Part shown: piece by piece, positions 10,245 to 60,710 of the stretch
Position numbering within the stretch: the stretch's first letter is position 1
Layout of the letters: each line of letters begins with the position of its first letter
Position numbers and translations under genes: made by a program
Notes under the pieces: model-generated
Seen by the model: only the letters and a program-made list of their open reading frames with translations
Told to the model about the DNA's origin: nothing
The model's database searches: none
Origin: Candidatus Thiovulum imperiosus
Lineage (GTDB): Bacteria > Campylobacterota > Campylobacteria > Campylobacterales > Thiovulaceae
Reading direction: 5' to 3'
Assembly (NCBI GenBank): GCA_024281175.1
Contig: JAMJTW010000031.1
Location: 20,100-84,099 of the forward strand
Length of the DNA: 64,000 nucleotides

Positions 10245-10305
10245 AAGAGTCTAAAAAGAAGACTCTTCGGTCGCTACCCTCCCTCAGAGTGTTCTGCCCT
10301 AAAAA
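10245..10305. repeat. GAGTC-hairpin module plus CTCAGAG module of the interspersed repeat family; possible ureG terminator
   Basis: AAGAGTCT-AAAAAGA-AGACTCTT hairpin at 10245-10267, followed on the minus strand by a T-rich run. The adjacent GGTCGCTACCCTCCCTCAGAGTG recurs at 15584-15620 and 31597-31625. Confidence 0.65.
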
Positions 10306-10472
10306 GGGGACTGACCAAATAGAGTATTTTTACATCTTAACAATTTATATGTCATTTCGAACCCTTTAGGGTGAGAAATCTTTTACATATTTGGGTAAAA
10401 GGATAAACTTCCAAGATTTCTCAATCACTTCGTTCATATCGAAATGACAAGAAAGCCTATTTGGTCACTCCC
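10306..10472. mobile_element. Full-length MITE-like (Correia-like) element, 167 bp
   Basis: Terminal inverted repeats GGGGACTGACCAAATAG and CTATTTGGTCACTCCC. Internal boxes GTCATTTCGA...GAGAAATCTT pair with AAGATTTCTC...TCGAAATGAC. Confidence 0.65.
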
Positions 10473-10478
10473 ATTTTC

Positions 10479-11069
10479 TCAATTTTCTGCAAGAACTTCT
10501 ATCCACTCTACAAGTTTTTTGATACTATCATCTCTATTTGATAAGAAGAGATAAGGCTTATTTCTTCTATTCTCTTTAACATCACTCTCCATAAATTCAA
10601 GGTTTACACCAACATAAGGAGAGAGGTCGGTTTTATTTACAATTAGGATATCGCTAAAAAGAAGACCAGCACCCTTTTTCCGTGGAATATCAGCACCTTG
10701 AGCAACATCAATAACATACATATAGTAGTCAATAAGTTCATAAGAGAAAGTTGCACTCAGATTGTCACCACCACTCTCTACAAAGATGATATCGGGATTG
10801 TATCTCTCTTCTAACTCTAAAACTTCTCGCTGATTTGCACTTATATCATCTCGAATTGCTGTATGAGGACAACCACCTGTTTCAACTCCAATAATTCTCT
10901 CGCTATCAATATCAAGATGAGATTTAAGATAGTTTGCATCTTCTGTTGTGTAGATGTCATTTGTAACAATACCAAGAGAGTATCTCTCTTTCAAGATATT
11001 TGTGAGCTGTTCAATAATGGAAGTTTTTCCACTTCCAACTGGTCCAGCTACTCCTATTTTTATGCTCAT
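10479..11069 (-). CDS. ureG: Urease accessory GTPase UreG
   Basis: P-loop GPVGSGKTS, metal motif GGCPHTAIRDD, and NKTDL. Confidence 0.95.
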   Translation of the reverse strand: MSIKIGVAGPVGSGKTSIIEQLTNILKERYSLGIVTNDIYTTEDANYLKSHLDIDSERIIGVETGGCPHTAIRDDISANQREVLELEERYNPDIIFVESGGDNLSATFSYELIDYYMYVIDVAQGADIPRKKGAGLLFSDILIVNKTDLSPYVGVNLEFMESDVKENRRNKPYLFLSNRDDSIKKLVEWIEVLAEN

Positions 11070-11077
11070 ATTTTCTC

Positions 11078-11752
11078 CTAAGTTACGAAAAGTTTCGGTT
11101 CTAAATCTTTGTGTCTATATATTATCTCTTCAAAAAGTGGGTTGAAGTTAGAAAGATGCTTTTCTCCACTAGAATCTACTTCTAGTTCAAGTAGAGTTCT
11201 CTGAATTTCTGATGGTTTTATTCTTGATATTTTCAAACTACTCATTGCGATATTCAAAAGAGTTTTTTTACTCCAGAGAAGAAGAAAAGTTTCTGGTGAA
11301 ATATCAAGTTCATATCCATAAGCTGAGAGAACTGCTAACTCATTTCCAAAAGCTACACCCTCTTTCACTTTTAAGAAATACTCTTTTACAACTTGTTTCT
11401 GAATTCCAAAATCTATCTGTTTTAAATAGTTTGCTCCAATCTCTTTTGACGCTTTTGCATAATGAAAATTTTGCATAGCACTAAAAACCTCATCGGCTCT
11501 AATTAGAAGATGCAACTTATCCTCTTCTAAATGTTTGAAAATCTCTCTTACAAATGGAAATTCTAATTTCTGATACTGCTCAACAATCAGATTTTCTAAA
11601 AATAGTTCCAACTCATATCTGTTTGTAACTCTTTCCAAAACAATATGAGGTTCTAATCCAAAAGAGTGAACAAAAGCTCCACTTGGAAAACTATTATCAA
11701 GTATCTGAAGAAATCTGCTAAGAGCTTTAGTGTGAATGGTGTGCATTTCCAT
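11078..11752 (-). CDS. ureF: Urease accessory protein UreF
   Basis: LQILDNSFPSGAFVHSFGLE motif, and position between ureE and ureG. The start may be the internal Met two codons downstream. Confidence 0.8.
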   Translation of the reverse strand: MEMHTIHTKALSRFLQILDNSFPSGAFVHSFGLEPHIVLERVTNRYELELFLENLIVEQYQKLEFPFVREIFKHLEEDKLHLLIRADEVFSAMQNFHYAKASKEIGANYLKQIDFGIQKQVVKEYFLKVKEGVAFGNELAVLSAYGYELDISPETFLLLWSKKTLLNIAMSSLKISRIKPSEIQRTLLELEVDSSGEKHLSNFNPLFEEIIYRHKDLEPKLFVT

Positions 11753-58662: not shown

Positions 58663-58685
58663 AAGAGACTTTTAAGTCTCTCCTC

Positions 58686-59324
58686 CTATCTCTTTCTAAT
58701 CCAGAGACCTTGATGAGCTTTCACTTCAAAATCAGAATCTGAGTTTCGAATCCATCGAGATTCTTCATTTTTCCATAAAAAGATTTTGTCAGAAGTGTTT
58801 TCAAGAATCTCAACTCCATTTTCATTTAAATCGATAGTAGTTCCAATAAGACTCCATTTTCCATCTGGTAAAGATGAGATGTAGCTTGTAAGGTTTCCAT
58901 ATTTCACACTTTCCATTCCATCTCGGATTAGATGAACTAATCCACCTTCACCAACTTCACCAAAAACAAAAGCATTTTCATATCCCATTGTATCTTTTAA
59001 AAGAACTTGGGAAATAGATGCTCGAGTTCCAGAACTACAATATACTAGAAGATAAGCATCTTTAGGTAGAGCTTCAACTTTCTTTTCAAGACTACCTCGA
59101 CCTAAATTCAAAGCTCCTGCAATATGTTCAATTTCAAAACTTATAGCATCTCGAATATCTACGATATAGACTTCCTCTCCACTCTCTTTTAGAGCTTCAT
59201 ACTCTGAAATAGTCATATATTGAGCTTTCTCTCGACCCTCAGCAGAAAAGTCTGCAAATGTTTTGTAATCTTCCGCAAATAGCAAACTACCTAAAAGGGC
59301 AACTGTTCCAAAAATTCTAAACAC
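58686..59324 (-). CDS. Secreted rhodanese-domain protein with a C-terminal extension
   Basis: Signal peptide, VDIRDAISFEIEHIAGALNLG, and the active-site loop YCSSGTRAS. About 90 extra C-terminal aa. Confidence 0.8.
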   Translation of the reverse strand: MFRIFGTVALLGSLLFAEDYKTFADFSAEGREKAQYMTISEYEALKESGEEVYIVDIRDAISFEIEHIAGALNLGRGSLEKKVEALPKDAYLLVYCSSGTRASISQVLLKDTMGYENAFVFGEVGEGGLVHLIRDGMESVKYGNLTSYISSLPDGKWSLIGTTIDLNENGVEILENTSDKIFLWKNEESRWIRNSDSDFEVKAHQGLWIRKR

Positions 59325-60538
59325 TATTTTCTCCTTGCTTTACCTTCGATAATAAATCGAAGTGCGTTTAGTTTGATAAATCCTTCGGCATCTTTCTGGT
59401 TATAAACCTCATCTTCCTCAAAAGTAGAGTAGTCAGAGTTGAAAAGGGACTTTTCAGACTTTCGACCAACAACAGAAATATTTCCTTTGTAGAGTTTAAG
59501 TCTTACAACACCTTCAACATTCTCTTGAGTCTTGTCAATTGCACTCTGCAACATCTCTCTTTCAGGTGAGAACCAGAAGCCGTTGTAGATTAGTTTAGCA
59601 TATCGAGGCATAAGTTCATCTTTGAGGTGTGCCTCTTCACGGTCTAAGCAAATAGACTCAATTGCACGATGAGATTTTAAAAGTATAGTTCCTCCTGGAG
59701 TTTCATAAGCTCCGCGACTCTTCATTCCAACAAAACGGTTTTCAACTATATCGGTTCTACCAATACCATGTTTTCCACCAAGTCGATTTAGTTCTCGAAG
59801 TATTTCAGCAGGAGAGAGCTTCTTATCTCCAATTGCAATAGGGTCTCCATTTTTATAAGTAATCTCTATATACTCAGCTTCATCAGGAGCATTTTCAGGA
59901 GAAACTGTCCATCTCCACATATCATCTTCAGGTTCAGCCCAAGGGTCTTCGAGAATTCCACCTTCATAAGAGATGTGAAGAAGATTTGCGTCCATAGAGT
60001 ATGGGGACTTTTTCCCTTTCTTATCTATCTCAATACCATGTTCTTCAGCATATTTCAAGAGTTTCTCTCGAGAGTTTAAATCCCACTCTCTCCAAGGAGC
60101 AATGATGATGAGGTTACTATCTATTCCTAAATATCCCATCTCAAATCGAACTTGGTCATTTCCTTTTCCAGTAGCACCGTGAGAAACACCATCAGCACCA
60201 ACAAGTTTAGCAATTTCTGCTTGTCTCTTTGCAATTAGAGGTCTTGCAATTGAAGTTCCCAAAAGATACTCACCCTCGTAAATTGCGTTTGCTCGAAACA
60301 TTGGAAAAACAAAATCTCGAACAAACTCCTCTTCAAGATTTTCTATAAAAACATTTTCAGGTTTAATTCCTAAACTTATCGCTTTCTTTCTAGCAGGTTC
60401 AACCTCTTCACCTTGCCCGATATCAGCTGTAAATGTAACGACTTCACATTGATACTCATCTTGTAACCATTTTAAAATTACGCTGGTATCCAAACCACCA
60501 GAGTATGCCAATACAACTTTTTTTACACTTTTTTTCAA
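59324..60538 (-). CDS. argG: Argininosuccinate synthase
   Basis: [14 protein letters not shown] motif and [13 protein letters not shown]. Confidence 0.95.
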
Positions 60539-60593
60539 AGTCTGAGTCCTATTTTTTTAGCGATTTTATCACATAGAAAAGATATAGAGTAGT

Positions 60594-60710
60594 GGGGACA
60601 GACCAAAAGCTGTTCTTGTCATTTCGAAATGAGCGAAGCGATTGAGAAACCTTGAAAGTATAGAAGATTTCTCACCCAAAAGGGTTCGAAATGACATTTA
60701 GGGATTGACT
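60594..60710. mobile_element. MITE-like element with a degenerate right end
   Basis: GGGGACAGACCAAAAGC ... GTCATTTCGAAATGAGCGAAGCGATTGAGAAACCTTG ... AAGATTTCTCACCCAAAAGGGTTCGAAATGAC. Confidence 0.55.

Follow-up and report, generated by a model that had tools for sequence, protein, structure and literature searches.

Repeats in the window

The window, the whole stretch of 64,000 nucleotides analysed here, carries short repeats with inverted 16-bp ends, GGGAsTGACCAAATAG and CTATTTGGTCAsTCCC. The initial annotation had listed seven bounded elements. All seven were found in place, at most 1 bp off, and most of its fragments were confirmed at their positions as well.

Most of these elements belong to class A, whose internal hairpins we call H1 and H2. 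A full-length class A MITE (175 bp) occupies 55348–55522 on the − strand and is flanked on either side by ATGGAAAC, a perfect 8-bp target duplication. The 166-bp copy at 10307–10472 (+) has two 16-bp ends, H1 at 10350–10381 (+) and H2 at 10414–10449 (−), and no clear target duplication. At 14061–14161 (+) lies a shortened copy of 101 bp with a degenerate left end, H1 at 14097–14129 and a good right end; its first base is the last base of the upstream ORF's stop codon. A derivative of 119 bp (18139–18257, −) has both ends and H2 only (18161–18196). The copy at 35603–35761 (+) has a good left end, H1 (35646–35678) and H2 (35713–35748), but its right end has been replaced, and it is bracketed by 19-bp direct repeats (35575–35593 and 35762–35780). 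Finally, 60594–60710 (−) is a class A core with eroded ends, containing an H2-like hairpin and H1 at 60665–60696. Class C is represented by a 172-bp MITE at 45764–45935 (+), with both ends, a hairpin at 45787–45824 and a target duplication matching at 7 of 8 positions (CTAAAATC/CTCAAATC). The smallest pieces are a solo end-like stretch at 4057–4078 (CTCTATTTAGTC...) and a remnant at 5666–5690, where two hairpin half-sites stand face to face (TCGAAATGAC-TTTTT-GTCATTTCGA).

The shell of class B carries a different long palindrome, with an AGAGTC..GACTCT hairpin at its tip. This hairpin had been taken for a separate module; it is instead the centre of a second MITE class with the same ends. One and a half class B units stand in tandem at 15584–15743 (+) between divergent genes (hairpin 15617–15637; ends 15667–15682 and 15727–15742). 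A class B half-unit without an end of its own (10245–10305, −) consists of an AGAGTCT-loop-AGACTCT hairpin (10246–10266) and a CTCTGAGGGAGG arm. It abuts the next element, and its − strand at 10268–10244 is flagged as terminator-like. The AGAGTC..GACTCT hairpin at 18103–18123 overlaps the stop codon of queA (17085–18104). A class B remnant at 20222–20257 joins the hairpin to the end-like CTCTTCGGTCACTCCC. Between 27178 and 27259 lie a solo end (27180–27195) and an AGAGTC hairpin (27240–27258) that a consensus scan calls terminator-like on both the + and the − strand. A class B core without ends (31597–31655) is in frame within the linker of a caspase/Lcl_C ORF (31071–32366, −) and hence not intergenic. 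Immediately downstream of this gene, which ends at 31071, four TGTC-tagged hairpins without MITE ends are clustered at 30782–31052 (30782–30809 −, 30896–30927 +, 30942–30969 − and 31025–31052 −), with an additional AGAGTC hairpin at 30842–30862.

The window has seven genuine AGAGTC hairpins; an eighth match, at 56515, lies inside an ORF and is a chance match. The hairpins do not often lie on stop codons, as had been suggested: just two of the seven do (18103 and 30735). Two in the window are flagged as terminator-like. Across the genome there are 67 such hairpins, compared to 0 in the control.

Describing the family as saturating the intergenic space is an overstatement. The window has about 20 gaps of 100 bp or longer, and repeats occupy about 11 of them rather than almost every one. 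Genome-wide, a complete element is present in about 9% of gaps measuring 60 bp or more. The elements bracket one BRO-N gene as proposed for the accessory islets, and two other islets only partially.

Shared ends and their parent insertion sequence

A BLAST search places the repeat family at about 156 loci genome-wide. Allowing at most one mismatch, we find 118 copies of the 16-bp end in the genome and 0 of the pattern read backwards. At the same stringency the end occurs at most once per genome in 398 other Campylobacterales genomes. Sixty-three units, 60–330 bp long, are bounded by ends. A typical MITE unit measures about 100–190 bp (mode 175 bp) and has no coding capacity.

These units have the marks of mobile DNA. 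A perfect 8-bp target duplication flanks 23 of the 63 end-bounded units and a 7/8 match flanks 10 more, whereas displaced control flanks reach 7/8 or better in 0 of 63. The duplicated sequences are 82% AT; a clear duplication is lacking in about half of the MITE copies. We also found one paralogous empty site (n=1; filled C22:26653–26828, empty C28:168731–168781). Among public contigs that match the window, 11 do so at 100% and one has a single mismatch. The repeat family is missing or different in the congener and in relatives from the same family, which fits mobility and not a conserved regulatory structure. Hence the proposal that these are non-autonomous mobile elements is borne out by terminal inverted repeats, 8-bp target duplications and one paralogous empty site. 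A transposase had been reported as lacking from the window; in the assembly, which contains the window, a search for six transposase families found none of them.

Neither a parent IS nor an IS1-type transposase was found in this assembly, and no MITE ends are located at its contig breaks. An IS with the same ends is present in G002, another Thiovulaceae genome (copy L145), and in Thiovulum sp. ES (copy L139). It is about 640–660 bp long and has a single ORF of 199–204 aa, whose stop codon lies inside the right end. The 199-aa protein of both copies matches Pfam DDE_Tnp_IS1 (PF03400) with 25 bits, against a cut-off of 24.1 bits, and NCBIfam transpos_IS1 (NF033558) with 71 bits (E 9.5e-20), under the 100-bit equivalog cut-off. 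NCBI and JGI both annotate it as 'IS1 family transposase'. Metagenomes contain five further copies of the IS. The MITE ends begin with GGGACTG or GGGAGTG, the GGnnnTG type characteristic of the IS1 family (PMC6807381). Seven full IS copies were examined, and all of them lack a target duplication; their contigs may be chimeric short-read assemblies, or cointegrate formation may have shuffled the flanks. Relatives also carry MITEs with the same ends, two of which, in G002, have 8-bp duplications. The G002 MITEs contain pairs of TGTC hairpins with different stems.

Judged by their ends and by the proteins encoded between such ends, the repeats are gene-less MITEs derived from a compact (about 650 bp) IS1-family IS. 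Since no autonomous IS turned up in the genome, we infer mobilisation in trans from the copies in relatives and metagenomes.

TGTC-tagged hairpins and a GIY-YIG nuclease

Inside the elements, GTCATTTCGA-N-GAGAAATCTT is mirrored by AAGATTTCTC-N-TCGAAATGAC. The initial annotation had noted this mirroring correctly, but the motifs are not parts of one palindrome; they are independent, pan-bacterial hairpins, which also occur without MITE ends. Their plan is TGTC-ATTTC-GA-(inner stem-loop)-GA-GAAAT-CTT: an oriented hairpin with a 5' HGTCWY tag (TGTCAT or CGTCAT), an ATTTC/GAAAT stem and a CTT tail. In H1 a 5-bp stem is followed by a tandem G.A step and then a 4-bp stem. In H2 the inner stem is rich in G.A and ends in GCGNAGC. 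One variant of the stem, ACCTC/GAGGT, shows a double compensatory change, and this compensated stem is the one in the class C hairpin at 45787–45824. Because tandem G.A makes up much of the stem, single hairpins fold only weakly in nearest-neighbour predictions.

The genome contains 217 hairpin modules, compared to 3 in the reversed genome. They form 127 loci, including 57 inverted pairs, of which 32 have both MITE ends, 13 have one and 12 have none; 34 loci are lone hairpins without MITE ends. Outside this genome, the 20-nt hairpin frame is found at 119 or more loci in many phyla, and in none of five relatives from the same family.

The hairpins resemble two described kinds of repeat. The frame agrees with that of the Neisseria NTS (CGTCATTCCCGCG..GCGGGAATC). 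The published SRM pattern, HGTCWYN(0-2)YYVSBRHN(0-5)WNVSBRGN(0-2)RNCYNB, has 0 matches in the genome, while the Neisseria NTS control matches. Traits of CGTC-REPs are also present: a CGTC or TGTC tag, A-T first stem pairs, a short tail and mostly inverted dimers. The dimensions of families CGTC-1 to CGTC-4 (stem 8–9 bp, loop 4–5 nt) are not matched by the hairpins. By this resemblance in motif and plan, the hairpins are of the CGTC-REP or Ssn-related-motif kind and a layer separate from the MITE shell.

Two small GIY-YIG genes (C22:39862–40100 and C25:30579–30870) have the same two TGTC hairpins on their flanks, one or more on each side, with the tags pointing outward as in the MITEs. Relatives of the encoded protein, which has no PDB relative by sequence, are found at 8 of the at least 119 foreign loci (seven at 49–60% identity, one at 38%), and 7 of these 8 are encoded within 300 bp of the motif. 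An ssnA-like gene was not found in G002, although its MITEs carry hairpins. The Neisseria protein SsnA binds to NTS in single-stranded form and cleaves next to it (PMC11893778). The TGTC hairpins are presumably recognition sites of the genome's own SsnA-like nuclease, making them candidate single-stranded DNA targets.

Two nested layers and their alternatives

The best overall explanation, to which we give a probability of about 0.75, is a repeat of two nested layers: an IS1-type MITE shell and a cargo of TGTC hairpins. An IS1-type transposase acting in trans would have inserted units, complete from end to end, into AT-rich intergenic DNA, either by cutting and pasting or by copying. The cargo of the class A shells (most often 175 bp long) and the class C shells is two TGTC-tagged hairpins in inverted orientation. 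The nuclease and the hairpin type were probably acquired horizontally, and the hairpin would then have multiplied both alone and as a passenger of the MITE shell. With no parent IS left in the assembly, the copies, roughly 60 of them complete and roughly 100 partial, have probably become immobile orphans. One repeat would thus combine, one inside the other, two already known types of selfish or regulatory DNA.

Alternatively, mobility could reside in the hairpin pairs, with the SsnA-like nuclease or another partner moving them as RAYTs move REPINs and the shells serving as their palindromic targets. Where MITE ends are lacking (12 inverted pairs, 34 lone hairpins), the borders at TGTC...GACA are sharp, and in the ssnA unit the tags likewise point outward, with the gene where the spacer would be. 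Across phyla, the nuclease and the hairpin type occur together. In Halothiobacillus neapolitanus, all CGTC-1 dimers lie within longer, 41-bp GGG...CCC palindromes (Di Nocera, De Gregorio & Rocco 2013, PMC3733652), and the arrangement NTS-ssnA-NTS looks like an IS (Chenal et al. 2025, PMC11893778). However, the 8-bp duplications are found at the outer ends and not at the hairpins, and these outer ends are those of a genuine IS that encodes a DDE transposase. Class A copies have internal junctions and spacer in common at about 90% pairwise identity, which indicates that the unit was copied whole. A population of empty shells was not found in the genome, where a single 42-bp sequence is the only candidate, and SsnA has been demonstrated solely as a single-stranded DNA nuclease. 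We consider this alternative unlikely.

The MITEs could also owe their movement to a different transposase that duplicates 8 bp and recognises GG...TG ends, from the IS6/IS26, ISL3 or IS1595/IS1016 families. IS6/IS26 elements typically also have GGnnnTG ends and 8-bp duplications, and the Pfam IS1 score is barely over its cut-off, with weak matches to ISL3 and IS256. Yet the ISL3 match has an E of 1.4e-5, compared to 9.5e-20 for transpos_IS1. Moreover, all gene-bearing elements with these ends encode the same IS1-type protein, one of them (metagenome copy L182) having ends identical to the consensus of this genome's MITEs, and no IS1595, ISL3 or IS6 transposase was found in the genome. We therefore give another transposase family very little weight.

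An equally improbable idea is that the repeats are not mobile DNA but regulatory structures of the host, passed on vertically and serving as intrinsic terminators or as hairpins that stabilise mRNA. Nearly all are intergenic (59 of 61 units genome-wide), the elements are predicted to form long hairpins (z −3.3 to −5.0), and a T-rich tail follows 25 of the 67 AGAGTC hairpins, besides the two terminator-like ones in the window. Against this stand the target duplications, the paralogous empty site and the family's absence from the congener and from family relatives. In addition, genome-wide placement of the units has no preference for convergent or tandem gaps, the repeats occur in both orientations, and an Rfam search gave no family match even at E <= 1. 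Under the nested-layer explanation, effects on transcription, such as some hairpins serving as terminators, would be a by-product.

A classical REP/REPIN system with a RAYT (Y1 HUH) transposase is barely tenable: the palindromes are short, tagged and often in inverted pairs, but the genome has no Y1_Tnp (PF01797) match at E <= 0.1, and the tag is TGTC/CGTC, that of a superfamily without a known RAYT, and not GTAG.

The repeats had been called Correia-like, which holds as an analogy only. Like the Correia elements of Neisseria, they are abundant, intergenic and MITE-like, about 100–170 bp long, with inverted ends and the ability to fold into a long hairpin, and the Neisseria genome likewise houses NTS-type hairpins. 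Correia elements have 26-bp ends and a TA target duplication, and to our knowledge no parent IS. In contrast, the Thiovulum repeats duplicate 8 bp, their ends are unrelated and common to an IS1-family IS, and the parent IS family is identified. The 8-bp duplication and unrelated ends rule out Correia identity.

With IS1-family ISs and IS-derived MITEs the repeats share GGnnnTG ends, 8-bp duplications and, in relatives, an IS1-model DDE transposase between the same ends; like other such MITEs they are short, gene-less and intergenic, with AT-rich targets. The parent is unusually small for the IS1 family, at about 640–660 bp with one ORF. Unlike typical IS-derived MITEs, only the 16-bp ends are common with the IS, the interior being foreign hairpin DNA and not IS remnants, and the master copy was not found in this genome. 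REPIN-RAYT systems also have inverted palindrome pairs that form a longer hairpin, and a single-copy gene flanked by the same palindromes, but here that gene is a GIY-YIG nuclease and no Y1 transposase was found in the Thiovulum genome. CGTC-REPs (PMC3733652) have the same tag, A-T first pairs, short tail and inverted dimers, no RAYT and an outer repeat starting with GGG. They differ in stem and loop dimensions (families 1–4), and the Thiovulum outer repeat is identifiable as IS1-family ends with 8-bp duplications.

QMITE2 of Coxiella burnetii (PMC10969869) also has a REP-type palindrome inside a MITE, and its truncated copies resemble plain REPs; its REP belongs to the GTAG type and serves as an IS1111 target, whereas the Thiovulum hairpins are TGTC-tagged and linked to GIY-YIG. 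The SRM of Neisseria (NTS/dRS3, PMC11893778) share the frame YGTCAT-stem-loop-stem-ATCY and hundreds of intergenic copies. The published degenerate pattern does not fit the Thiovulum hairpins, whose stem is longer and split by tandem G.A steps; many of them ride in a DDE-type MITE, and the nuclease is known here from its sequence. As in the SRM/SsnA system, hairpins lie on either side of a single-domain GIY-YIG gene of about 95 aa, and clusters of hairpins adjoin genes for exported or surface proteins.

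The repeat family and its mobility

The genome of Candidatus Thiovulum imperiosus (G000) is a 2.2-Mb draft with 33% G+C in 36 contigs, to which we refer by C-numbers (the window is G000:C31:20100-84099). The seven bounded elements described for the window were all found in place. Their inverted ends read GGGAsTGACCAAATAG / CTATTTGGTCAsTCCC and, as had been claimed, GTCATTTCGA-N-GAGAAATCTT is mirrored inside them by AAGATTTCTC-N-TCGAAATGAC. A BLAST search of the genome with all seven copies returned about 156 loci. Allowing at most one mismatch, the 16-bp end occurs 118 times in the genome (60 forward, 58 reverse) and never in a backwards-read control. 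Among 398 other Campylobacterales genomes it occurs at most once per genome. The internal hairpin module has 217 copies, compared to 3 in the reversed genome, and the AGAGTC..GACTCT hairpin has 67, compared to 0 in its control.

The density of the family is lower than the initial annotation supposed. Instead of almost every gap, the elements occupy about 11 of the roughly 20 gaps in the window that measure 100 bp or more, and across the genome a complete element is present in about 9% of the gaps of 60 bp or more. Almost all units are intergenic (59 of 61), and none of the gap types (convergent, tandem or divergent) is preferred. An Rfam search with the repeats gave no match at gathering thresholds and none at E ≤ 1. 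Literature searches by sequence strings returned nothing relevant to the repeats, and a paper linking Thiovulum with MITEs was not found.

The end-bounded units fall into several classes that have only the 16-bp ends, the shell, in common. Class A comprises 27-30 full copies, most often 175 bp long and on average 90% identical in pairwise comparison. Each copy consists of an end, 27 nt, a first TGTC-tagged hairpin (H1, TGTCATTTCGA-ACCC-TTTN-GGGT-GAGAAATCTT), a roughly 32-nt spacer, a second hairpin in reverse orientation (H2, with the inner part TATGAGCGTAGCGATT), 14 nt and the other end. Conservation by column is highest in the ends and hairpins and lowest in the central spacer. Class B units are about 125 bp long (for example C7:39268-39395) and form a single long palindrome (fold z = -5.0), the tip of which is an AGAGTCT-loop-AGACTCT hairpin. 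This places the AGAGTC hairpin, which had been taken for a separate module, in the same shell family. Its proposed role in termination could apply to a minority of copies: 25 of the 67 have a T-rich tail, two in the window were flagged as terminator-like, and such copies are possible candidate terminators. In class C, at window 45764-45935, the hairpin stem ACCTC/GAGGT replaces ATTTC/GAAAT, and this double compensatory change is evidence that the stem pairs.

Not all copies in the window follow these layouts. The class A copy at 35603-35761 has no right end and lies between two copies of a 19-bp direct repeat, TCTATTTCGTGAAAGAGAT (35575-35593 and 35762-35780), which suggests a secondary rearrangement and not the normal 8-bp duplication. 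A class B core without ends (31597-31655) is in frame within an ORF on the reverse strand (31071-32366), where it lies within the linker between a caspase and an Lcl_C domain (around residues 237-256). RPEs and some REPs have likewise been described as repeats within coding sequence.

Target duplications support mobility of the units. A perfect 8-bp direct repeat directly outside the ends is present in 23 of 63 end-bounded units, and 10 more match at seven of eight positions; when the flanks are displaced by 12 bp, none of the 63 reaches seven of eight. In the window, ATGGAAAC flanks the unit at 55348-55522 on either side, and the unit at 45764-45935 lies between CTAAAATC and CTCAAATC. The duplicated sequences are rich in A+T (82%), and a stretch of four or more A or T is found in 22 of the 33; several class A copies are located in the loop of an AGAGTC hairpin. 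One paralogous empty site was retained: the sequence split at C22:26653-26828 is intact at C28:168731-168781, with one copy of the 8-mer. A second candidate was rejected. No orthologous empty sites were found in the congener Thiovulum sp. ES, which is only about 67% identical and lacks synteny. All public contigs of the organism match the window completely or nearly so: 11 of 12 are 100% identical to it and one has a single mismatch. These contigs often end within the MITEs. The repeats disrupt short-read assembly of this organism, and Logan contigs stop inside them.

An IS1-type parent

The elements had been called Correia-like. They are MITEs, but no Correia elements: those duplicate TA, and their ends are unrelated. 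Going by the ends and the duplication of 8 bp, we had guessed IS1595/IS1016, ISL3 or IS6 as the parent, and none of these transposases was found in the genome. Neither were IS1 or Y1 transposases, the latter result speaking against a RAYT system. End pairs 0.5-5 kb apart enclose only ordinary genes and no transposase, and there are no MITE ends at the contig breaks.

The parent appears in relatives. With one-base variants, the end motif occurs six times in Thiovulum sp. ES and nine times in G002, another Thiovulaceae genome. In both genomes, the ends bound elements of 638-658 bp with one ORF of 199 codons each. The encoded protein matches Pfam DDE_Tnp_IS1 with 25 bits (cut-off 24.1) and NCBIfam transpos_IS1 with an E value of 9.5e-20, and NCBI and JGI annotate it as 'IS1 family transposase'. 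It has nine matches in Thiovulum sp. ES, three in G002 and none in the genome of Candidatus Thiovulum imperiosus. Metagenome contigs contain five further copies of about 640-660 bp, in which the stop codon of the transposase lies within the right end. One metagenome copy (L182:161-818) encodes a transposase of 202 aa, and its ends are identical to the MITE consensus of Candidatus Thiovulum imperiosus. The IS1 family is described as having ends of the form GGnnnTG (PMC6807381).

Both relatives also carry MITEs with the same ends. They include 111-bp copies with 8-bp duplications (CAGATAGT, TCATTTCT) in G002 and internal deletions of the IS in Thiovulum sp. ES. Although the MITEs have target duplications, these are absent from all seven full IS copies (L178, L180, L181, the metagenomic L182, L183, L145 from G002 and L139 from Thiovulum sp. 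ES). Chimeric assembly over a multi-copy 650-bp repeat, or exchange of flanks through cointegrates, could account for the missing duplications. We infer that the MITEs were probably moved in trans by an IS1-type transposase that was later lost from the genome. This gives the dense, species-specific repeats of an uncultured giant sulfur bacterium a concrete and testable parent, an IS1-family element of about 650 bp that is among the smallest ISs. New here are the lineage-specific MITE family and the identification of its IS1-type parent.

TGTC hairpins and SsnA-like genes

The TGTC hairpins are a second layer, independent of the shell. There are 127 hairpin loci in the genome. Of these, 57 are arranged as inverted pairs; both MITE ends are present in 32 pairs, one end in 13 and no end in 12. 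Another 34 of the 127 are lone hairpins without MITE ends. Hence hairpins occur both within and outside the shell.

Their frame is known from other bacteria. The Neisseria repeat NTS/dRS3, CGTCATTCCCGCGMAVGCGGGAATCYRG, has the same frame; the GIY-YIG nuclease SsnA binds NTS and cuts beside it, only as single-stranded DNA, and ssnA genes are typically bordered by such motifs (PMC11893778). CGTC/TGTC-tagged REPs, for which no transposase is known, also share the frame (PMC3733652). In a scan for GTCATTTCGA-N(10-18)-GAGAAATCTT that covered one genome of each species, we obtained at least 119 loci in Bacteroidota, Desulfobacterota, Chloroflexota, Nitrospirota, Ignavibacteriota and others, frequently as inverted pairs. 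Five genomes of the organism's own family contain none.

The published degenerate sequence of the Ssn-related motif (SRM) does not describe these hairpins: it has no match in the genome, while the NTS control matches. The hairpin stem consists of 5 bp followed by a tandem G.A step and an inner stem. For H2 and most foreign copies, our own reading of the sequence is that the inner stem may be formed by G.A steps around a GCGNAGC mini-hairpin. Across phyla, a Watson-Crick test of the inner segment is not significant (14% vs 11% with at least three terminal pairs), folding energies of single hairpins are weak, and a generic search for perfect-stem CGTC hairpins found no excess over the control. 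Because the SRM pattern has no matches and stem support is weak, we file the TGTC hairpins as a variant of the SRM/NTS kind and not as a proven member.

Two loci in the genome carry a single-domain GIY-YIG gene of about 98 codons (Pfam GIY-YIG, E 6.7e-18), which we call ssnA-like. One of them, C25:30579-30870, encodes a 98-aa protein and lies on a contig of 72,032 bp that matches its reverse complement at 99.8% identity; this palindromic assembly artefact doubles all features of the contig, the ssnA locus included. In both cases H2 precedes the gene and H1 follows it, the tags pointing outward, which is the layout of the class A pair with the gene replacing the spacer. There are no MITE ends within 4 kb of either gene.

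A relative of the GIY-YIG protein is encoded at 8 of the 119 foreign loci listed (seven at 49-60% identity and one at 38%), in seven cases at most 300 bp from the motif. More than 3,000 homologue clusters exist, with about 60-66% identity across many phyla. In contrast, the congener's copy is only 50% identical and flanked by other hairpins, which suggests that nuclease and hairpin type may have arrived together by horizontal transfer. The nuclease presumably recognises the hairpins on single-stranded DNA, and the hairpins would have spread by hitch-hiking in the MITE shell.

This abundant hairpin type keeps its 20-nt frame unchanged in many phyla and goes with the SsnA family, although the published pattern misses it. 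The catalogue of nuclease-site pairs is therefore larger than published. A pan-bacterial hairpin type that is linked to SsnA and not covered by the published definition is new.

Clusters of four to five TGTC hairpins lie directly downstream of five of the eight genes that end in an Lcl_C/DUF1566 tail ('...VCVRDL*'), at window 30782-31052, C5:59498, C25:30212, C30:23531 and C36:16895. A sixth such gene (C22:39681) is followed by only one hairpin. For random 400-nt windows the expectation is about 2.6%. Such positions are also occupied by the two ssnA-like genes and by the ssnA of Thiovulum sp. ES. Simple paralogy of gene plus flank is a possible explanation for the clusters.

Shell and hairpin pairs together, and other features of the window

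About half of the hairpin loci in the genome sit within shells, and in two Thiovulaceae genera the same shell is combined with different TGTC-hairpin pairs. This recurrence of an IS1 shell with a TGTC-hairpin pair in two genera is new. Precedents for REPs inside larger repeats are QMITE2 of Coxiella, with a GTAG REP, and the CGTC-1 dimers of Halothiobacillus, all of which lie inside GGG...CCC palindromes. The repeats offer a natural case of presumed ssDNA-nuclease recognition sites multiplied by an unrelated transposon, which is relevant to the spread of REP-like sequences for which no transposase is known.

The pairing may not go back to one capture. A possibility to which we give roughly one chance in five is a recurrent partnership between IS1-type shells and SsnA-type hairpin pairs. 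Here, a DDE-transposon chassis would seed ssDNA-nuclease sites across the chromosome, or the hairpins would promote transposition of the shell; hairpin pairs that lack terminal inverted repeats would represent miniature versions derived from a mobile 'hairpin-ssnA-hairpin' unit.

Three small phage-like genes are dispersed among housekeeping genes of the window (aroA, queA, trxB-like, urease): a BRO-N/RhuM gene at 14171-15220, a Rha+T5orf172/MUG113 gene at 18403-19155 and a BRO-N gene at 29773-30465. MITE-family repeats lie next to each of them, on one side or both. Elsewhere, tandem paralogous small genes are covered by two pairs of local direct repeats that have no relation to the MITEs: 22246-22447 / 22654-22855 (91% identity) and 1-164 / 1048-1211 (95%). 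Inside the urease alpha-subunit gene, window 23989-24278 on the reverse strand is a full-length Rfam match to the Helicobacter 5' ureB antisense sRNA (97.7 bits), which in a non-Helicobacter host may reflect only the conservation of ureB coding sequence. At window 62966-63473, within overlapping ORFs (62840-63767), a 33-bp unit encoding an 11-residue repeat is present in at least 11 tandem copies.
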